IMG/VR virus record: IMGVR_UViG_3300011785_000002
Span: 56,343 to 76,342 of that record
From: an uncultured virus (IMG/VR IMGVR_UViG_3300011785_000002)
Lineage: Duplodnaviria; Heunggongvirae; Uroviricota; Caudoviricetes
Length of the DNA stretch: 20,000 nt
Reading direction: 5' to 3' (one strand)
The notes beneath the pieces were generated by a model. It was not told the origin of the DNA. It worked only from the letters and a program-made list of their open reading frames with translations, and ran no database searches. Positions 1 through 12,648 of the stretch are shown piece after piece. Position 1 is the stretch's first letter. Every line of letters starts with the position of its first letter. The position numbers and the translations under genes were made by a program.

Positions 1-19
1 TAGGGTTTCGCATTGCCAT
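1..19 (-). CDS. 5' end of a gene running off the left edge (MAMRNP...)
   Basis: ATG at 19 preceded by AAGGA SD (28-32), overlapping the stop of the upstream ORF; only 6 codons visible. Confidence 0.6.
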
Positions 20-30
20 GTTTGTTATCC

Positions 31-294
31 TTATGATCCGTATTCTGTTAAAACACCAGTGGAGACTCCTTTTTCATGTCCTTTTTCTAATCCTACACAG
101 AACATTTTAAAAACCGCTAAAGTGGCGCAGCACATATAGTTGCCTGAAGAATCTTTTCGTTTAAAAGACATTTCTTCTTGTAATTCAAAATGATCATACA
201 TAACACGGTCTGCGATTGCTTGTTCAAATAACGTTTGTGCTTCCTCAAGAGAAATGCACGTAACTAACGGTTGATCTTTTAAGTTTCGAATCAT
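31..294 (-). CDS. hypothetical phage protein (87 aa)
   Basis: ORF with GAG-containing SD (AAGAGAG) in the same orientation as all neighbours. Confidence 0.75.
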   Translation of the reverse strand: MIRNLKDQPLVTCISLEEAQTLFEQAIADRVMYDHFELQEEMSFKRKDSSGNYMCCATLAVFKMFCVGLEKGHEKGVSTGVLTEYGS

Positions 295-324
295 GGTTTT
301 ACTCTCTTTAAAAATTTAGGGTGC

Positions 325-353
325 AAAAAAGAGCAACCTATCGGTTACTCTTT
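325..353 (-). terminator. rho-independent terminator
   Basis: minus strand AAAGAGTAACC-GATA-GGTTGCTCTTT followed by a T-run. Confidence 0.75.
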
Positions 354-416
354 CTATCTGGTTTGATTAGCTTCGTTTATTTTTTAAAACTTGTCAACAT
401 GAAATGTCGATTTATA

Positions 417-1151
417 TCATAAAGTTTCTAAATAATTTTTCACTTGCTGGGTTGAATCATAGTGGCTCAGGATACGATCACAATGTTCTTTTGCCCATCG
501 GATCCACTCCAACTGGTAGTGGCAGTCGACTGTTGCATTGTGCGCTTCATCTTCTTTGCCTTTGTCACGGATCTTTGCGTAGTCATTGAACAACCAGTAC
601 ATTTCAGTATTCGCACCCAAAGGTAGTGGGTATTTATACAAGGCATAGAACACATGCTCAAACATGCTCATTACATAAGTTTTCATATCCATCACTTCAC
701 GGTAGTGGAAAGGACTAGGCACCTGATATTCCTGATACAAACCATCCAGGAAGGGATAGTCAAAACCTACCGGCTTTGCCCAGAACTGTGTCTTGACCTG
801 GCCCTTTGACTTGACCCCATTTACTTGATTCAAACACCATTGGTAGGTTTCAAGTAGTGCTTCATTCATGGGTTTAGCAGCATTCACACCTTGAAGAATA
901 TAATTCAAAACATCACGACGTTCAGGTTTTTCCCACCACTCTACCGTAGACGGATTTGGTTTACGCCCTTTTCTGATCTGTTCATTCAACGGAAGAAAAA
1001 TCTCAAACTCGTCCTTTGCCTCAAAAGTTTTTGGGTCAAAAGAAACCAGTGCGAGTTGCAGCACTGGTGTTGTATTTGGGGTAGTTCCTAATGTTTCACA
1101 GTCAAACATAATGGGAACGTATTGTGTATCAAGGCTGCGAATAGTAGTCAT
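417..1151 (-). CDS. DEDDh 3'-5' exonuclease (Rv2179c/ExoVIII-like phage family)
   Basis: Motifs FDCETLGT, FWAKPVGFD, REVMDMKT, AHNATVDC; start reassigned to ATG 1151 (GGAG SD 6 nt upstream), overlapping the end of the resolvase gene. Confidence 0.88.
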   Translation of the reverse strand: MTTIRSLDTQYVPIMFDCETLGTTPNTTPVLQLALVSFDPKTFEAKDEFEIFLPLNEQIRKGRKPNPSTVEWWEKPERRDVLNYILQGVNAAKPMNEALLETYQWCLNQVNGVKSKGQVKTQFWAKPVGFDYPFLDGLYQEYQVPSPFHYREVMDMKTYVMSMFEHVFYALYKYPLPLGANTEMYWLFNDYAKIRDKGKEDEAHNATVDCHYQLEWIRWAKEHCDRILSHYDSTQQVKNYLETL

Positions 1152-1608
1152 AAAGCTCTCCGGTGGTCCATGGGTATTTCTTAATAGTTTCAACGCTGAT
1201 TGATTTTTTACCTGCTTGGAGTGCTTCTAAAATCTCAAACGATGGAACCAAATATAAATTTTCTTTGTCTTTTAAAAATTGAAAGACAATAAAATAAGGG
1301 AGCTTTAAGTTATATGCTCGTTGCATACCTTGAAGCTGCCCTTTCTGGAAAGTTGACTTTATATTAAAACTGGTCTTGGTGGCAAGTGTTTCTTTTGATT
1401 CAATATAAAAAGTATTAGGTAAAAACTTTTCCAAAGCAACATCACGGCCCAGGCTAACAATATGGTCGCAGGGTCTGGTGTCTTCATAATTACCAGTGTC
1501 GTATTTGTCCGGAAGTCGTTGAATATCGACGCTAAGTTTGTAAGCTTTACGAAGCATACGAACCACTTGGTTTTCTGTAGATTTTCCTGAAGGGCGAAGC
1601 ATTGCCAT
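1129..1608 (-). CDS. Holliday junction resolvase, RecU-like PD-(D/E)xK nuclease
   Basis: GKSTE N-terminal helix, PCD...YIESKE motif, GQLQGM, replication-module context; GAGGA SD. Confidence 0.78.
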   Translation of the reverse strand: MAMLRPSGKSTENQVVRMLRKAYKLSVDIQRLPDKYDTGNYEDTRPCDHIVSLGRDVALEKFLPNTFYIESKETLATKTSFNIKSTFQKGQLQGMQRAYNLKLPYFIVFQFLKDKENLYLVPSFEILEALQAGKKSISVETIKKYPWTTGELYDYYSQP

Positions 1609-1621
1609 GTAATCCTCTTAC

Positions 1622-1840
1622 TCAATACAGTCTGTGTTTTTCTGCACGTTTACGTTTTTCATAATCGTCCCGACAATCTATGTCACAGAACAATTGAGTG
1701 TCCTTGTCCAGTACCTCGTCACAATTGTAACATTCGCCGGTAGGTTGTAATCGTGCATTCATTTTTTTCACGTTGCTCATTGCTTGCTGAAAATGCAATT
1801 CAATTGTTTGCTGTTCCAGTTCGTCTTCTTTCTCTGACAT
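1622..1840 (-). CDS. small C4 zinc-finger protein (TraR/DksA-like or DUF2116-like)
   Basis: Acidic N-terminal helix followed by CYNC-x10-FCDIDC, a pattern common in phage small proteins. Confidence 0.75.
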   Translation of the reverse strand: MSEKEDELEQQTIELHFQQAMSNVKKMNARLQPTGECYNCDEVLDKDTQLFCDIDCRDDYEKRKRAEKHRLY

Positions 1841-1859
1841 TTTACTTCTCTGCAGTTAT

Positions 1860-1885
1860 AAAAAGCCCACGCATGGACACGTGGG
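1860..1885 (-). terminator. rho-independent terminator
   Basis: CCCACGT-GTCCA-TGCGTGGG-CTTTTT on the minus strand. Confidence 0.65.
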
Positions 1886-1914
1886 AAAGTTTGATTATGC
1901 CATGTTTTTGATAA

Positions 1915-1962
1915 AAGAAAAACCTGTCTATATAGACAGGCTGATCCTTACATGGCAATGTT
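1915..1962 (-). ncRNA. candidate ~45-nt antisense small RNA
   Basis: Bounded by a sigma70 promoter (1968-1996) and a terminator hairpin CCTGTCT-ATAT-AGACAGG-TTTTT (1918-1940); 5' end CATTGCCATGTAA is complementary to start-codon regions at 1600-1612 and 11-21. Confidence 0.55.
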
Positions 1963-1967
1963 TGGTT

Positions 1968-1996
1968 AAGTTATCAAGTATTTCCTTTGTTGTCAA
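1968..1996 (-). promoter_or_regulatory. sigma70-type promoter
   Basis: TTGACA (1991-1996), 17-bp spacer ending in TGA, then TAACTT (1968-1973). Confidence 0.7.
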
Positions 1997-1997
1997 A

Positions 1998-4559
1998 CTA
2001 AGCTGCTTTTCTTTCAGTCAAATAGTTCAAAATAAGATCCCTTTCCTCACTACTCGCTCGTTCTTCCCAACGTTCTTTAGGAATACACGGAACACCTTTC
2101 TGAATCTCATGCAATTCAATTTGTCCATAAGGAGCCTGAACAGGGTCGAATGGTTGGAAGGTGTAACCGACGGCTACTGAACTATCGATTTTCACGTTCG
2201 GGAACAGGTCACTGTCCTGAATCATTTCGTTATACAGGAAATCACAAAATGCTGCAACTTCTTGTTTTTTAACGGAAAATAATAATTCATCATGAATAAG
2301 GAGCATGAAACGTGCACTAAACCCTTGTTCCTGAGCATTATTCACAGTACGGATAATGGTTCGTTTCGCCAAAGCAGCACACATCCCTTGGATTGAGAAG
2401 TTCACAGCCTGGTTCAAAGAACGACGATGAATACGACGCATTGCTTCACGTGCAAAGCTCATGATTGCGTCTGACTCATAAGACATAAATACCTCTGTCA
2501 TCAAATCCGACCATTCCTGGGTTGCTTCAAAACGTACCCGAGTGTGATGGTCACCAAGCTTGATAAACCCACGGTTTTTGACCTGTTCCTGGACACCTAA
2601 ACGCCAGGATTCCGCAACTGGGAATTCACTTGTGTAGCCTTTTACAGCTTCTGCAGTACGGTCCATATTCCAGCCCATTTCGTCAGCGATTGTACCTAAC
2701 CAACCAGAATACCAATAACCGAAGTTTGCCACTTTACCCAGCACAGTACGGTAGAATTTTTTATCTGGCAATTCAGAAAATTCTTCAACGGACATACCCA
2801 AGATACCGGCAGCTGCCTTACTATGTAAATCTTTATGCGGTCGTTGCGAATAGGCTGCCAACATTGCCGGATCCTGGCTGTTTGCTGCCACACCTACCAA
2901 TTCAATAGCAGACCAATCGGCTGAAACAATAACACTATCCTCGTCATCCGCCAGGAAGAAGCCACGGACGAAGACCGAATCACCACGCTTGGCCAACTGT
3001 TGTCCGTTTGGTGACGAACAACTGGTTCGACGTGTCGCCAGCATGGACGTCATTTGTGGGTGCATCAACCCTGTTTCTGGATCTACCAAACATAGGTATG
3101 GCGTGATATACAGCTTGAACGCTTGTTCTGCAGAAGCAATTTTCGCGTAAGCTTCCAATAACGGATGCCCTTCCTCAAACTCTGCCAACATCGCTGCCCG
3201 GGCATCTTTATCCGACTGGATCTTGCCACCGGTTGCTTTGCAAGGTAAATCAAAAATCACAAACATTACATAGCGCATGGCCATGTAGTGGTTAATTGAT
3301 AACTGAGCACTTGGTTTAGCGTTCATACCTAGACGGTCTTCAATCCATGCGTTGCTTGGGGCACACTTCACCTGTGTAGCGATTGAATAGCTATCCAGAT
3401 TATCTGGTGATTCAATCCACTGCTTAAATAGACGATAGTATTTTTCATGAGAAGCTGGTTTATACCATTTCTCGTACTTTAATAACTTTTCGTGCATTGG
3501 AGGCATTTCATCTGGGAAATGTTCCCGGACTGCTTTTTTAAGATCCAGCAAGGATTCCGTAAAGGACTCACGCATCGTATCACGACGCATTAAAATTTCC
3601 TTTCGGTTGACTCGCATACCGCCAATGGTGGTTTCAGCAAAGATCCGGGTGATTGGATTCTCTGTTGATAAATAGGTGCCAATCACATCTGGATTTACTT
3701 GCTGTAAGTATTGGTAGACACGGAAGAATAAACGATAGGCCCAAATAGCATCGTCGGCACCATATTCCAGCACTTGTGCAGCTGTTAATGCTTCCATGTC
3801 ACATTCATCACCAAGCGTGTCTTTAAACTCAGCCATTTGGTAACCGAACCAGGATTTGACTGCTTTCTTTAAACCATAACCGTATGAAATATCTTTCACG
3901 ATCCCTTCATAGGAATGTGTCGCTTTCCCAGACTTTGCACAGAACTTGCCTAAGACTTCTTCCTGTTTAAAGGTGAGTTTACCTTGCTCATAATTTGAAA
4001 ACTCACGTTCAATTTCCGGAATCAGTGGTTTAATTCCGCGAAGGACCGCAGCCTGTAAATTATTCTTGTGATATTCATCTGGATTATACGCAGTCACACA
4101 TAGCTGCATAGAACACAAAGTATTCGGCAACACCTGATCGTAACTACCACGATGCACACAATATTCATAAGGTACGTTATGAATGATCAACGTATCGTTA
4201 TGTCGCTTGGCTGTTTCCATCCATTTAAGCAGGTAGGAAATATCAATGGTGTTTTGTGTGTCGGCATGGCCGAAGTTAATGTAGAAAGCTTTATCAGGAT
4301 GTGTTTTACCGAAGTAAAAAGATGCACCTGTAATTTTGGTGCGTTTGAAATCAAACAATAACTTTTTACCATGGGAGAAGCCTTCATCGTCCACCTTCAT
4401 CAATTTCTTGATGCCTTCGTGAGCGTCTCTTTGTGAGGTCTCTATGTCGTAACCTATTAAATTGTTTGGTGTTTTTACTTGTTCCATGAAAAAAACATCC
4501 CAATCCTGTATGTTATTTCGGTCAACAAGTATGTTCTGCACCGGTGCGTGGTAGTCCAA
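1998..4559 (-). CDS. DNA polymerase family A with N-terminal 3'-5' exonuclease domain
   Basis: ExoI YDIET, ExoII HNVPYE, ExoIII YGADDA; TRRTSCSSPNGQQ; motif A DWSAIEL, motif B R..GKVANFGYWY, motif C IHDEL. Start set to TTG 4559, 7 nt after AAGGAG, rather than 4607. Confidence 0.96.
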   Translation of the reverse strand: MDYHAPVQNILVDRNNIQDWDVFFMEQVKTPNNLIGYDIETSQRDAHEGIKKLMKVDDEGFSHGKKLLFDFKRTKITGASFYFGKTHPDKAFYINFGHADTQNTIDISYLLKWMETAKRHNDTLIIHNVPYEYCVHRGSYDQVLPNTLCSMQLCVTAYNPDEYHKNNLQAAVLRGIKPLIPEIEREFSNYEQGKLTFKQEEVLGKFCAKSGKATHSYEGIVKDISYGYGLKKAVKSWFGYQMAEFKDTLGDECDMEALTAAQVLEYGADDAIWAYRLFFRVYQYLQQVNPDVIGTYLSTENPITRIFAETTIGGMRVNRKEILMRRDTMRESFTESLLDLKKAVREHFPDEMPPMHEKLLKYEKWYKPASHEKYYRLFKQWIESPDNLDSYSIATQVKCAPSNAWIEDRLGMNAKPSAQLSINHYMAMRYVMFVIFDLPCKATGGKIQSDKDARAAMLAEFEEGHPLLEAYAKIASAEQAFKLYITPYLCLVDPETGLMHPQMTSMLATRRTSCSSPNGQQLAKRGDSVFVRGFFLADDEDSVIVSADWSAIELVGVAANSQDPAMLAAYSQRPHKDLHSKAAAGILGMSVEEFSELPDKKFYRTVLGKVANFGYWYSGWLGTIADEMGWNMDRTAEAVKGYTSEFPVAESWRLGVQEQVKNRGFIKLGDHHTRVRFEATQEWSDLMTEVFMSYESDAIMSFAREAMRRIHRRSLNQAVNFSIQGMCAALAKRTIIRTVNNAQEQGFSARFMLLIHDELLFSVKKQEVAAFCDFLYNEMIQDSDLFPNVKIDSSVAVGYTFQPFDPVQAPYGQIELHEIQKGVPCIPKERWEERASSEERDLILNYLTERKAA

Positions 4560-4630
4560 TTCATAACTCCTTAAGTTATTTTTGGTATAGAAAAAGGACA
4601 GTAGCAATTGCCCTGTCCGTTGTTACATCT

Positions 4631-4660
4631 AAGATAGTTCATTTGTCACTTGAAAGTCAA
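4631..4660 (-). promoter_or_regulatory. sigma70-like promoter for DNA polymerase
   Basis: TTGACT-18 bp-TATCTT directly after the terminator at 4662-4684. Confidence 0.55.
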
Positions 4661-4661
4661 C

Positions 4662-4684
4662 AAAAAACCCAACTGGAATTGGGT
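4662..4684 (-). terminator. rho-independent terminator
   Basis: ACCCAAT-TCC-AGTTGGGT-TTTTT on the minus strand. Confidence 0.75.
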
Positions 4685-4990
4685 CGTTTGTCGTTTCTTT
4701 CAGTTTTCTGGAAAACTATCCAGTTTTGATTAAGCAGTGAGAATTACTTAATCACAATTAAGGTCCGTTTTGCTGTCTCCACATTAGCAAAATAAAGGAT
4801 GATCCAGTCCCGGACGATTAATTAAACCTAACATATTTTACTTTTAAAGTTAAACAACACACCATCGAAGAAGCTTAACTGGTCTTACCTGACTCTATGC
4901 GATGACCCATGTTTTTCTCGCGCTTTTTGGATCTAAGGAGAAGCGAGAAGTAAGACCTTTTAGATATGAATGGCTAACATCCTGAGAGTA
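4685..4990 (-). ncRNA. candidate structured ncRNA / structured 3' region (ncRNA-3)
   Basis: ~300 nt without a credible ORF, with nested helices 4727-4736/4745-4754, 4756-4767/4811-4823, 4768-4774/4786-4792, 4881-4888/4950-4957, 4915-4920/4944-4949. Confidence 0.5.
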
Positions 4991-5491: not shown

Positions 5492-5567
5492 TGGTGCTCA
5501 AAGTAGGACTCAAACCTACGACCTGATGCTTACAAGGCAACTGCTCTATCAACTGAGCTATTCGAGC
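5492..5567 (-). tRNA. tRNA-Thr(UGU)
   Basis: Cloverleaf: acceptor GCTCGAA/TTTGAGC, D stem GCTC/GAGC, anticodon loop CTTGTAA, T arm GTAGG-TTTGAGT-CCTAC, encoded ACCA. Confidence 0.95.
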
Positions 5568-5572
5568 TAAAA

Positions 5573-5648
5573 TGGCTGCCTCAACACGGTTCGAACGTGT
5601 GACCAACGGATTAACAGTCCGGTGCTCTACCAACTGAGCTATGAAGCA
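5573..5648 (-). tRNA. tRNA-Asn(GUU)
   Basis: Cloverleaf: acceptor TGCTTCA/TGAGGCA, anticodon loop CTGTTAA, T arm ACACG-TTCGAAC-CGTGT, encoded GCCA. Confidence 0.96.
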
Positions 5649-7852: not shown

Positions 7853-7908
7853 GCGTTTTTCCTCTATAGTGGTTCTCCGCGATATTACCATTTTTTGGTA
7901 TATCAGCG

Positions 7909-9121: not shown

Positions 9122-11374
9122 TTATCCTGAAAAGTTAAATTTGTTGTCTAGGAAGACAATACGTTGTTTCACCCACTCCATAACATCTGGAAAACTGGTA
9201 TAAGCAAGTGAGGGTAAAGGCCATTTTTGGTATTCCAATTCTAACAATTGGGATGGGTACATATCCATTAATACTTTCATATTTTTATAAATATGATCTA
9301 CAGTAAATAAACCATTTCTACGCAACTCTGCATATCTAGCTTCAATATCTGAACGATAAGCCACATAAACCTTAGCCCAGAAATCATTTCCTTGGAAGGT
9401 GTCAAAATTGGGTGGAAAACGTCCTGTTGTCCCATCAAAGTCTAAACCATAGGTCATGTCCAAATCATAAGGCATGATAAACCATTTGGTTCCGTCCCAT
9501 GTGATGAATTGCAAGTTTTTAAATACAAAATCAGCCCCTGCTAAAAAGTCAGCGAAGCAGTAATAATCTACTACGTTGTTTTTATCTAGGTATGTATTTT
9601 TCTGAGCAGTAAAATCAGCTTGTGGTAAATTAGCAAAAGTCAACCAACGCTGTTTGTTTGCTTCTGCACCTGCACCCCAAGTTGATGGTGCTTTAACATC
9701 AATAGCTTCTGGTGATAATGTTGATAATGAAGTAATACCGCCAATGTCGAAGTGAATTTGATTTTGGTTATTTTTGGCAATGTTATAGTTGCCACGTTTT
9801 TTACCAATGCCGATACAACCTACACCATAGAAGCTACCATTGATGTAGACCACTGTTGGATATTGAATTGGATGACCTGTTGCACCAGTTTCCATAGCTG
9901 CAGCACCAGTTTTACCTACATAGGTGTGGTCAATATCACGCTTTGGATAACCTTTACGAGTATCCATTACTTGTGCCCAAAGATTATAATTTGACATCAT
10001 TCGTACTTGAATGTGATCAATCCAATTGGCTTTGAATACCCAAGTGCTGTGACCCATTACTCGACCAATTTTTAGTGATGCTTCCGTTTGGAACTCAGGG
10101 TCTGTGAATAGATCAAAGGACCAGTTTTTCTTTGGGAAACCTGCAGAAGAAGAACCTTGCACACCAAACTCGGTGAATGCGGAAAACTTAACACCATCTA
10201 CAGTAATAGCAAATTTACCATTGATTGTTCCTTGATCCTTACTTACTGGTAAGGTCATTTCCGTTTCTATGTCAATGATGGTGATGCTTTGTGGTGCTTG
10301 TAATTCAAATAAGTTTTTACCTAAATTACGTGCTTCGGAACCACCTGTTCCTCCTGAACCTCCTGAGCTTGTACGGATACCTATGATTGCTTCTGTCACA
10401 ACATGGCTCAACATAGTAAGTGCAGTTTCAAACTTAATATTATTTAAACGAGTATCCGCTTCTAATTGAGTTAAGATTTGCTGTGTAAACAAGATCGACG
10501 AAGTAAATTGCTCCCCTTGTTTAGTGATTTTATTATCGAGATCAGCTAAAGCTGAAATCACAATATGTTGAAACAACAAGTCTTGAACTTGATCTTCTAA
10601 AACATTGTCTCCAATATCTGAAACTGTTTGCACCAGTTTGTTATAACTTACGACTAAGCCTGAGATATAGTTTTCATGTTTATCAAGGAGTTTTCGCAGG
10701 GAATCAACATGTTCTTGTAACGCTACAAGCGCATCATTATCTACATCTTCACTGATTAGATGTTCATTGAAAGTTTGAACAAATATATGAAAGCTAAGAA
10801 CCAGTGAGGCTAGGGAATTACGTGTGATCATTATTTGCTTATCAACGTATGCTTTAGTCAGGGTGAGCGAATCATACTGAGACTTGGTCAAGGTCGTTGA
10901 TTCTGCTGTTGCTTTATACCATAGTCCTCCGTTAGCATCCTCACCAACCTGGACAGGCTGATTAACCTCTAGGTTTGCAATATCCGCATTAGCTTCTGCC
11001 AGTGTTGGGTAGAACTTTGAAGCTTGTGTACTAAGCTGAGATAGAGCAGTGACAACATAATCCATTAGTGCTGAATCTTGTGAATCCACATAGGTATTAT
11101 CAGCTTTATTTCTAGTCAATAACAATTCAGCTTCTATAGCTCTTTTTTCTTCATTATTCAATCTTTGAATAATTTCTTCAATTTCTTCTTCTCGTCCTTC
11201 AGCTGCTAATTCTCTAAGCATCCCCACAGTTATTGCTTCATTTCCAGCATAATTTGATGGAAAGTTACCAGCTACGAGTTTGATTTGATCAAAAGCATCC
11301 GGGTCTGCAGGTAAATTACTTGGGGTTGTGAGGTCTTTTACAGACCGGGCATGTATATTGGTTAATTCGGACAT
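9122..11374 (-). CDS. tail fibre/spike-type protein with C-terminal CotH kinase domain
   Basis: N-terminal tail-attachment-like segment (YPTLAEANADIANL), coiled coil, SSGGSGGTGG linker, then CotH motifs QGSSS..PKKNWS, WVFKANWID, YINGSFYG, D..KN, WFIMPYDLDMTYG, WVKQRI.FLD. Confidence 0.78.
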   Translation of the reverse strand: MSELTNIHARSVKDLTTPSNLPADPDAFDQIKLVAGNFPSNYAGNEAITVGMLRELAAEGREEEIEEIIQRLNNEEKRAIEAELLLTRNKADNTYVDSQDSALMDYVVTALSQLSTQASKFYPTLAEANADIANLEVNQPVQVGEDANGGLWYKATAESTTLTKSQYDSLTLTKAYVDKQIMITRNSLASLVLSFHIFVQTFNEHLISEDVDNDALVALQEHVDSLRKLLDKHENYISGLVVSYNKLVQTVSDIGDNVLEDQVQDLLFQHIVISALADLDNKITKQGEQFTSSILFTQQILTQLEADTRLNNIKFETALTMLSHVVTEAIIGIRTSSGGSGGTGGSEARNLGKNLFELQAPQSITIIDIETEMTLPVSKDQGTINGKFAITVDGVKFSAFTEFGVQGSSSAGFPKKNWSFDLFTDPEFQTEASLKIGRVMGHSTWVFKANWIDHIQVRMMSNYNLWAQVMDTRKGYPKRDIDHTYVGKTGAAAMETGATGHPIQYPTVVYINGSFYGVGCIGIGKKRGNYNIAKNNQNQIHFDIGGITSLSTLSPEAIDVKAPSTWGAGAEANKQRWLTFANLPQADFTAQKNTYLDKNNVVDYYCFADFLAGADFVFKNLQFITWDGTKWFIMPYDLDMTYGLDFDGTTGRFPPNFDTFQGNDFWAKVYVAYRSDIEARYAELRRNGLFTVDHIYKNMKVLMDMYPSQLLELEYQKWPLPSLAYTSFPDVMEWVKQRIVFLDNKFNFSG

Positions 11375-11377
11375 AAA

Positions 11378-11407
11378 AATACCTCCAGTGTTGGAGGTAT
11401 TCTATCA
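11378..11407 (-). promoter_or_regulatory. SD-sequestering hairpin with extended -10 promoter upstream of the CotH-tail gene
   Basis: AATACCTCCA-ACAC-TGGAGGTATT-TTT-ATG; TGA-TAGAAT overlaps the 5' arm. Confidence 0.65.
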
Positions 11408-11824: not shown

Positions 11825-12646
11825 TTAAAAGTCCATTGTCATGGCTGGTACATTGGGTTGGACCAGTTGTTGTTTGGGATAGAAGCGAGTGTGTTTAATT
11901 AACTCAGCATCTGGTATCTCCATGTAGTTTACCACACGCCAGTACATTTTTAATGTTTCCCAATGTTCGCTAATTTTTTCACACAATTTAATAAAATACT
12001 TTTCATCTAATGGAAAAGCATTATTTGGAATGAATTTTGGAAAATCATTCTGCAACTGATAATGGATCATTTTTCTTTGCTGTTCAGATAAACGTTCCCA
12101 GGCTTTTTCACCAAAACCGCTGAGTCCTTTTAAATTATCCGAACTATCACCCACCATTGTTTTGAAAAGATTTAATTCATCACAGTTGTTGACGTTCTTC
12201 GGCATAACTGCTTGTGGTTGAATCACGTTTGGCAAATGTGAAAGGTTAAGAATATCGACGTCATTTGATGAAATCGTAATGTGGTTCCGGCCATCAGCCA
12301 AAGCCATGGCTAGTTTGCGGATAATGTCATCGGCTTCTGTGTATGGCCGTTCACAGATAAAGATACCGCCCTGGTTGGGTAGATCAATCTTTTTGAAATC
12401 GTTGAGCATGTCATATTTTGTGGTGTCTAAACGATTCTTGGCCCGGGCAGCTGTGTTTTTATATTCAGGGTAAAGCTCCCGTCGGGGTTTTCTGGAGTCA
12501 TAGCCGTCGAATACCCAGTAGACCTGATCAAAGCCCCAGTTAAGTTGAATACATCGATTAACTAAATCCTGGTAACTTGTGGCCTTTGCATATTTTAAGA
12601 AGAACTGATTGTTCCCATCGATAAGATGGATTTTTTGTGATGCCAT
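11825..12646 (-). CDS. 5'-3' exonuclease / flap endonuclease (PolI N-terminal, T4 RNase H-like)
   Basis: LIDGNN, VFDG, R..LYPEYK..R, EADDII, SSNDVD, MVGDSSDNLKGLSGFGEK (H3TH). Confidence 0.93.
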   Translation of the reverse strand: MASQKIHLIDGNNQFFLKYAKATSYQDLVNRCIQLNWGFDQVYWVFDGYDSRKPRRELYPEYKNTAARAKNRLDTTKYDMLNDFKKIDLPNQGGIFICERPYTEADDIIRKLAMALADGRNHITISSNDVDILNLSHLPNVIQPQAVMPKNVNNCDELNLFKTMVGDSSDNLKGLSGFGEKAWERLSEQQRKMIHYQLQNDFPKFIPNNAFPLDEKYFIKLCEKISEHWETLKMYWRVVNYMEIPDAELIKHTRFYPKQQLVQPNVPAMTMDF

Positions 12647-12648
12647 GT

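Follow-up and report, generated by a model that had tools for sequence, protein, structure and literature searches.

A candidate phage-encoded base-pairing regulatory RNA with complementarity to the start regions of two nuclease genes

Results

Gene organization downstream of the phage DNA polymerase gene

We analysed a stretch of 20,000 nucleotides (referred to here as the window), which is the final 20 kb of a 76,342-nt IMG/VR record from an uncultured virus. Near-identical DNA is present in wastewater and other metagenome runs belonging to 11 studies. The nearest cultured relatives are five Acinetobacter siphophage records, TCUP2199, EAb13, fJoAci01, fJoAci04 and Mystique, and the polymerase encoded in the window is 68.7-71.3% identical to theirs at the amino acid level. 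EAb13 has been described as lytic. All genes on the left side of the window are encoded by the minus strand; those that concern us here are listed from right to left.

4607..1998, minus strand: polA, family A DNA polymerase (Pfam DNA_pol_A, E=1.3e-42)
1840..1622, minus strand: DksA-like zinc-finger ORF of 72 aa, between the element under study and target 1 (phrog_54, E=6.3e-8)
1608..1129, minus strand: Holliday-junction resolvase (phrog_843, E=1e-9)
about 1151..417, minus strand: Rv2179c-like exonuclease
294..31, minus strand: ORF of 87 aa
19 and running off the left window edge, minus strand: SbcD-like metallophosphoesterase, a nuclease (phrog_100, E=6.9e-14; Metallophos, E=9.3e-12)

The polA ORF is listed from a TTG at 4607 and a crude gene call begins it at 4559; its stop codon is the TAG at 2000..1998. 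Several other features of the phage were noted. The DksA-like ORF is kept in all relatives examined, always behind a CCCACG..CGTGGG hairpin. In the Acinetobacter phages L001-L003 an extra gene of ~730 nt, which overlaps the polA stop, lies between polA and the DksA-like ORF, and this gene is absent from the phage of the window. Further to the right the minus strand encodes two tandem tRNA genes (5495-5648) and a 750-aa protein with a CotH kinase domain (9122-11374; Pfam E=1.4e-14). Outside the window, the intergenic region G000:C1:16240-16367 contains five copies of TGTGGATAA, the complement of the DnaA-box consensus TTATCCACA. Host DnaA may be recruited here, in which case the region would be an origin of replication.

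A candidate transcription unit directly downstream of the polA stop codon

Between the stop codon of polA and the polA terminator we found a candidate unit that occupies 1996..1911 on the minus strand. Its elements, together with the sites that follow it before the DksA-like ORF, are listed below.

1996..1991, minus strand: TTGACA, the P1 promoter -35 hexamer, immediately past the stop of polA
1973..1968, minus strand: -10 hexamer TAACTT of P1, separated from the -35 by a 17-nt spacer
1963..1961, minus strand: predicted transcription start in a run of A, 5-7 nt past the -10, which is the usual hexamer-to-start distance
1960..1948, minus strand: seed CATTGCCATGTAA, the predicted RNA 5' end, exact reverse complement of 1600-1612
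1942..1911, minus strand: intrinsic terminator T1 (stem 1940..1923, U-run 1922..1912)
1902..1894, minus strand: extended -10-like TGGCATAAT, a conserved sequence and possible promoter P2, between T1 and T2
1885..1860, minus strand: second hairpin (listed at 1885..1866) and U-run T2, CCCACG..CGTGGG then CTTTTT, from the scan for terminator-like sites

The original prediction for this DNA had called for a near-consensus promoter right after the polymerase stop and a terminator downstream of it, and when the minus strand was read both were found where they had been placed. The description of the promoter as near-consensus holds for the -35 and for the spacing, but not for the -10. This hexamer agrees with TATAAT at 3 of 6 positions (T-12, A-11 and T-7 are retained), and its weakness put P1 below the threshold of our promoter scan, so that P1 is missing from the resulting list; this counts against the reading of the unit as a small RNA gene. 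The genome contains 41 copies of TTGACA of which only 2 are intergenic, the -35 of P1 among them. Promoter-like sites taken together are not enriched in the window (35 vs 48.9 ± 7.8 in shuffles). Terminator-like sites are enriched (35 vs 15.0 ± 4.4 in shuffles).

The T1 hairpin has a stem of 9 pairs, CCTGTCTAT/ATAGACAGG, and a loop of 4, with an energy of -11.6 kcal/mol, and is followed by the U-run TTTTTCTTTTA. A stem that leads into TTTTTCTTTT is, at the sequence level, the kind of terminator expected of a trans-encoded small RNA. The predicted RNA of 52 nt folds with an energy of -16.7 kcal/mol (z = -4.66), and the seed holds only a weak local stem of 4 bp. A scan of the whole window against Rfam 15, with E values up to 1, gave 9 matches, none of them at 1900-2000.

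Immediately downstream of T1, TGGCATAAT overlaps ACATGGCA (1905..1898), which is a partial copy of the target sequence. It is possible that TGGCATAAT is a second promoter, P2; if active, it would give transcripts without the seed. TGnTAnAAT sites that follow or overlap terminator hairpins were observed at 1894-1902, 7880-7899 and 11399-11407 of the window and at 28426 and 45606 of the genome. At some of these extended -10-like sites transcription would begin inside the 5' arm of the hairpin, so new transcripts from them would escape the terminator.

We also considered what the plus strand might encode at this position. A gene or peptide at 1948-1960 (ATG GCA ATG TTT GGT TAA) was rejected, as it would have 5 codons and no ribosome binding site. 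Promoter-like sites on the plus strand, including TTGCCA at 1602, are at or below the shuffle expectation and were rejected as well.

The seed is complementary to the start regions of the resolvase and SbcD-like genes

The seed had been predicted to be antisense to the starts of three genes. The corresponding sites in the window are the following.

1612..1600, minus strand: target 1, resolvase start TTACATGGCAATG (ATG 1608..1606, second ATG 1602..1600)
21..11, minus strand: target 2, SbcD-like start ACATGGCAATG (ATG 19..17)
12641..12648, minus strand: ACATGGCA, matching 8 nt at the 5'-3' exonuclease (flap nuclease) start, judged to be at chance level

We found that the seed 13-mer is a perfect complement across the resolvase ATG, and that the match extends to 16 nt if one mismatch is allowed. 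The resolvase Shine-Dalgarno sequence, AAGAGGA, is at 1619..1613. The 11-mer CATTGCCATGT is also present at 11-21, where it lies over the ATG of the SbcD-like gene. Both predicted matches are thus exact. Both main targets begin ATG GCA ATG and hence M-A-M, as had been noted, and this is true of 2 of the 103 crude gene calls in the genome. In the predicted fold the seed is accessible, and it could pair without mismatch over 13 nt at one start codon and 11 nt at the other.

When duplex energies were calculated for 103 start regions the resolvase ranked first (-20.8 kcal/mol) and the SbcD-like gene second (-17.9 kcal/mol). Cofolding gave ddG values of -14.7 and -14.6 kcal/mol for the two targets. 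The proposed third target fared less well. The 8-nt match, TGCCATGT at 12641-12648, is present and covers the ATG of the flap nuclease; however, this start region ranks 8 of 103 with -13.6 kcal/mol, and the 8-mer is found 6 times in the genome. We rejected it as a target at this chance level. The suggestion of a nuclease regulon therefore fits two genes, the second being SbcD-like, but not the third.

Chance estimates and internal controls

Shuffled seeds reached the best of these energies in 3 of 300 cases and the second-best value in 0 of 300. A stricter control counts against the prediction: among random genomic 21-mers that contain CAT, 20 of 300 reached both energies. Because these 21-mers do equally well, the energy-based ranking of targets is weak evidence.

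We then considered the 11-mer itself, which has 3 copies in the 76,342-nt genome, all no more than 2 kb apart, and none when a reversed control pattern is used. There are 203 canonical 11-mers with at least 3 genome copies, of which 6 are clustered within 2 kb; 4 of these 6 are tandem or low-complexity sequences. Counted over the whole genome, 10 13-mers, at about 7 loci, are complementary to a start region located elsewhere; 3.5 were expected. We estimate the chance of such complementarity at this particular spot of ~21 nt as about 1 in 1000, which becomes perhaps 1-2% after allowing for the many places that could have been chosen. That two targets share 11 nt is by our estimate only mildly unusual when taken alone (about 0.1).

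Three other units in which a sigma-70-like promoter is followed by a hairpin with a U-run were found in the genome. One lies after the exonuclease stop (window 397..312, minus strand) and consists of TTGACA, 17 nt, GAAGCT and a hairpin with a U-run; one lies before polA (window 4590-4660, minus strand) and consists of TTGACT, 18 nt, TATCTT and a hairpin; and the last is at genome 52522..52430 on the minus strand. In all three the hairpin is within ~20-30 nt of the promoter, and two of the three stand directly after the stop codon of the upstream gene. They may be attenuators or further small RNAs. As an internal control we compared complementarity to start regions among the four units and found long matches (13 and 11 nt) only downstream of polA, with a maximum of 6-8 nt at the others. 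Since at least three other promoter-hairpin units lack long complementarity, the architecture alone is no mark of a small RNA gene.

Conservation of the unit in close relatives

Comparison with relatives provides the main evidence in favour of the unit. A scan of metagenomes using the resolvase yielded two useful relatives, L011, which is 99% identical, and L012, which is 83% identical by tblastn and 84% in the alignment. A weak partial match, L013, was left out of the comparison. In L011 the element is identical to that in the window. In L012 the promoter retains TTGACA at 6 of 6 positions, the -10 (TACCTT) at 5 of 6 and the 17-nt spacing, while the spacer is identical at only 8 of 17 positions. 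The polA stop of L012 overlaps TTGACA and is placed differently than in the window, so coding constraint cannot explain the conservation of this hexamer. A contig from run X15 gives a third context for the -35. It is identical to the window over 1918-1978 and then diverges (5 of 12 spacer letters agree), but has TGTCAA in register, exactly at 1991-1996. The comparison of runs covers the best-supported differences, with 99 more lying outside it, and so does not bear on whether the seed is invariant in the runs. P1 as a putative promoter is thus supported by comparison, with the hexamers kept across the diverged spacer of L012 and the -35 kept in X15.

The same comparison bears on antitermination. 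A lambda-type Q module, in which a promoter and a nearby terminator give a short RNA, has a conserved protein-binding element between the -35 and the -10, and here the spacer is the least conserved block in both L012 and X15. The leader is also unstructured, and a put-like or Q-like antitermination site was therefore rejected as the main reading.

The part of the seed given by AAACATTGCCATG is conserved in both L011 and L012. L012 retains AACYAAACATTGCCATG, and the linker from the seed to the hairpin has diverged. In the T1 stem of L012 the fourth pair has changed from G:C to A:U, a compensatory change, and the loop has changed; the U-run and the next ~45 nt are kept. The TGGCATAAT block is identical in L011 and L012.

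Covariation between the seed and the start regions in related phages had been suggested as a check on pairing, and we found evidence on both sides. The resolvase start of L012 is CCATGGCAATG vs the seed CATTGCCATGG. Here an A to C change at position -2 of the target is matched by a T to G change in the seed (U:A to G:C), and a duplex of 11 bp is kept. This is a single position in a single informative relative, and the odds of such a match by chance are about 1 in 4. In L011, however, an A replaces T at target position -4 and the terminal, 13th pair is lost.

The second target could be followed in L011. There, unrelated sequence has taken the place of the gene that precedes the SbcD-like gene, yet the TAAGGATAAYAAACATGGCAATG block is kept. 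The region of the 87-aa ORF (window 31-310) is a hot spot of mosaicism: L011 and runs X12, X15 and X16 have in its place a cassette, 215-239 nt long, that is unrelated to it. The cassette junction is at 23-34, just upstream of the start region of the SbcD-like gene. Because the 87-aa gene is replaced there, parts of 75-296 are uncovered in the runs. Run X16, which is from an RNA library, has one assembled contig across 1151-2045; as a contig carries no information on RNA ends, it speaks neither for nor against a small RNA.

Seed module and nuclease starts in more distant relatives

The seed, T1 and the TGGCATAAT block are lacking in L008, L015 and L016 (52-59% resolvase identity), in L009 (38-39%) and in the Acinetobacter phages. 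In these seed-less relatives the resolvase starts MS.., MAS.., MAAI.. or MIKK.., and the SbcD-like protein starts MID/MLK/MFE-RNP. Starts other than M-A-M were found for both genes in L008, L009, L016 and TCUP2199, and for the resolvase only in L015, EAb13 and Mystique. The M-A-M starts of both nucleases occur together with the seed module in the window and in L011, whereas the L012 sequence allows this to be seen for the resolvase only. In the set of relatives compared, M-A-M starts of both nucleases are thus found only in the seed-bearing lineage.

The downstream hairpin has a wider distribution. The T2 stem is conserved in L008, L011, L012 and L016, L015 has A/T for G/C at the sixth pair, and the loops are variable. 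In L016 the polA stop is followed by TTGTCA, 17 nt and TAATTT, then by the CCCACG..CGTGGG hairpin and the DksA-like ORF. L008 has this hairpin with a weaker promoter candidate, and the L015 locus begins inside the hairpin. From these sequences, it seems that in distant relatives a promoter at this position drives the downstream operon directly. A promoter-like site before the T2 hairpin and the operon in L016, and less clearly in L008, suggests that the unit in the window may be an operon promoter with an attenuator.

Additional searches gave little further material. Nucleotide searches of the phage collection found nothing for 1100-4700 in near mode or for 1100-2100 in distant mode, and the resolvase as a single-protein query found 0 relatives among viral contigs. 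Three degenerate DNA patterns, searched in viral contigs, returned the contig of L008 or nothing. In genome contigs, one degenerate DNA pattern had no match and a profile search returned only an irrelevant match of 21 residues (L018).

Discussion

The elements of the unit, their conservation and the complementarity to the two start regions are present, and from the sequence we regard the unit as a candidate phage-encoded base-pairing regulatory RNA. We propose, with a probability of roughly 0.4, that 1960..1948 is a functional anti-start-site RNA element which acts mostly as a ~50-nt RNA running from P1 to T1 and lowers translation of the resolvase and the SbcD-like nuclease. The RNA would start near 1961-1963 from P1, a sigma-70-type promoter whose -35 is consensus, whose spacer is 17 nt and whose -10 (TAnnnT) is weak. 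The product would be ~48-52 nt long, its first ~14 nt largely unpaired and the remainder consisting of the terminator hairpin and the U-tail. A polA mRNA that terminates at T1 would likewise bear the seed sequence in its own 3' end. The 5' segment of the RNA would pair with the resolvase mRNA from -4 to +9 (13 bp) and with the SbcD-like mRNA from -2 to +9 (11 bp). Pairing over the start codon would block binding of the 30S subunit, and when the RNA is abundant translation of the two DNA-cutting enzymes would be held down. Production of the RNA, its pairing with the targets and repression through that pairing are all plausible readings of the sequence. An RNA of this kind would probably act in trans, which is favoured by the strong terminator directly after the seed and by the presence of two separate targets 0.35 and 1.9 kb away. 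In read-through mRNA the seed may act in cis as well, the sequence by itself being compatible with either mode. Overall, the original interpretation of a multi-target repressor appears to be partly supported.

How the element arose can be proposed only more tentatively. A siphophage may have inserted a module of seed, terminator and promoter in the leader of a recombination operon, after which both nuclease starts would have co-evolved to ACATGGCAATG, encoding M-A-M. Translation of the nucleases would then be coupled to transcription of the polymerase region, either through the ~50-nt RNA or through the 3'-terminal part of the polymerase transcript. We consider this full account somewhat doubtful, and less probable than the anti-start-site RNA element itself.

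The arrangement in L016, with its TTGTCA-17-TAATTT after the polA stop followed by the conserved hairpin and the operon, and the weaker candidate in L008, would fit a null view in which the unit is a promoter for the DksA-like, resolvase and exonuclease operon followed by an attenuator or terminator. The complementarity would then be incidental, arising by chance or as a relic of a small inverted duplication, and the match would have been retained through unrelated constraints on the first transcribed stretch. The three other promoter-then-hairpin units that lack long complementarity, the roughly 7 genome loci with a 13-nt complement to some start region and the 20 of 300 in the stricter energy control are all consistent with this. 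We nevertheless think it rather unlikely. It leaves unaccounted for the retention of the seed in L012, where linker and promoter spacer have diverged, the matched change at -2, and the 11-nt start sequence that is common to both nucleases only in the seed-bearing lineage. Moreover, a strong terminator with a U-run of 9/10, positioned 21 nt past the start, would largely defeat an operon promoter. With a single informative relative behind the comparison, however, this reading keeps some weight. The clustering of the 11-mer, with three copies in a 76-kb genome all within 2 kb, could instead point to a DNA operator, in which ACATGGCAATG would bind a phage regulator in either orientation. The copy at P1 would be at +2 to +12, the classic position for blocking initiation. 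Independence of orientation is natural for DNA sites, and the concerted A-to-C change at both copies in L012 is compatible with a shared binding specificity. However, two of the three copies lie in the same register on start codons (ATG GCA ATG) with no promoter evident there, which points to RNA or translation rather than to DNA. The motif is also not palindromic, and no candidate regulator was identified. We regard an operator as highly improbable.

Pairing between the seed and the resolvase start could also take place within one molecule. In mRNA that reads through T1 and T2, whether from polA or from P1, 1960..1948 would fold onto the resolvase start 335 nt downstream and silence the resolvase. 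Transcripts from 1902..1894 would be without the seed and would be translated, and the small terminated RNA would be a by-product. The minimum free energy fold of the 394-nt leader (1963..1570) closes with exactly the 13-bp helix, although long-range pairs in such folds of ~400 nt are unreliable. Inhibitory helices at the starts of T4 e, soc, 49 and I-TevI provide a precedent as described in PMC3014915, but those are local hairpins, and here two terminator-like hairpins and a whole translated ORF separate the arms. A ribosome that finishes translation at the TGA (1624..1622) would pull the helix apart. The TGGCATAAT block is fully conserved in L011 and L012 and resembles the other extended -10 sites that follow terminators, but P2 is itself a predicted promoter, and a start from it would put T2 at the very 5' end of the transcript. 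Conservation of the seed and the compensatory change fit pairing in cis as well as they fit pairing in trans. The second target also weighs against it: one seed in one molecule cannot serve two targets, and the 11-nt site 1.9 kb away is left unexplained. We consider both silencing by such a fold and its relief by transcripts from 1902..1894 to be unlikely, more so than a simple operon promoter and less so than an operator, and we prefer the small RNA acting in trans.

If the trans-acting RNA is real, it would be a compact and testable case of a likely lytic phage that restrains its own DNA-cutting enzymes by means of a trans-type seed RNA. It would also show how such a regulator can originate from an operon leader. 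The element is small enough for full testing in synthetic reporters although the phage is uncultured.

Comparison with known systems

Type I 3'UTR-derived small RNAs of enterobacteria, such as DapZ and MicL, have a promoter at the end of the upstream ORF and share a terminator with the upstream mRNA. They are short and consist of a seed and a Rho-independent terminator; they are host-encoded and Hfq-dependent, and their transcripts have been shown experimentally. In the position of its promoter and in sharing its terminator with the gene before it, the candidate element resembles them. It differs in being encoded by a phage and in having its targets in the same operon region.

Phages P1 and P7 make an antisense RNA, c4, from a site upstream of its target and in the same direction of transcription. 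It is described as pairing with complementary sequence in the ribosome binding site region of a phage mRNA, whose translation it blocks (Citron & Schuster 1990, as summarised in PMC12197685). Of the known systems, this is the one that the candidate RNA would work most like. In that account, however, c4 presents its sequences in loops of a structured RNA and controls the antirepressor and immunity in temperate phages, whereas the element here has a single linear 5' seed, its own promoter and terminator, and two nuclease targets, and the cultured phages nearest to it are Acinetobacter siphophages, EAb13 among them being described as lytic. The structured two-loop form and homology that define c4 are thus absent, the seed being linear and the element being without an Rfam match.

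Other small regulatory RNAs of phages that are bounded by a promoter and a terminator include lambda OOP and P22 sar (PMC12197685) and lambda PreS/LPR1 (bioRxiv 10.1101/2024.10.31.621285). The RNAs treated in these two sources are, in the accounts given there, mostly from temperate phages or directed against the host. As described, OOP and sar are cis-antisense RNAs from the opposite strand, while the candidate shares a strand with its targets and would pair with them through a short trans-type seed. PreS differs in that its reported targets are host mRNAs.

Gene 49 of phage T4 encodes a Holliday-junction resolvase, endonuclease VII. The start regions of e, soc, 49 and I-TevI are reported to be sequestered in long early transcripts, with late promoters inside the structure (PMC3014915). 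In these cases, as outlined in that source, the Shine-Dalgarno sequence or the AUG pairs with an upstream arm, so that early read-through transcripts stay untranslated, and a downstream promoter gives transcripts without the inhibitory arm, which is similar to the arrangement of seed, TGGCATAAT and resolvase start described above. The T4 structures are local hairpins. In contrast, 335 nt separate the arms here, and an ORF and two hairpin/U-run sites fall within that interval; TGGCATAAT is located there too, without a compact hairpin around it, and a second complementary site is present 1.9 kb away. If the candidate RNA acts as proposed, pairing between two RNAs would do in this phage what folding of the mRNA does for T4 gene 49.
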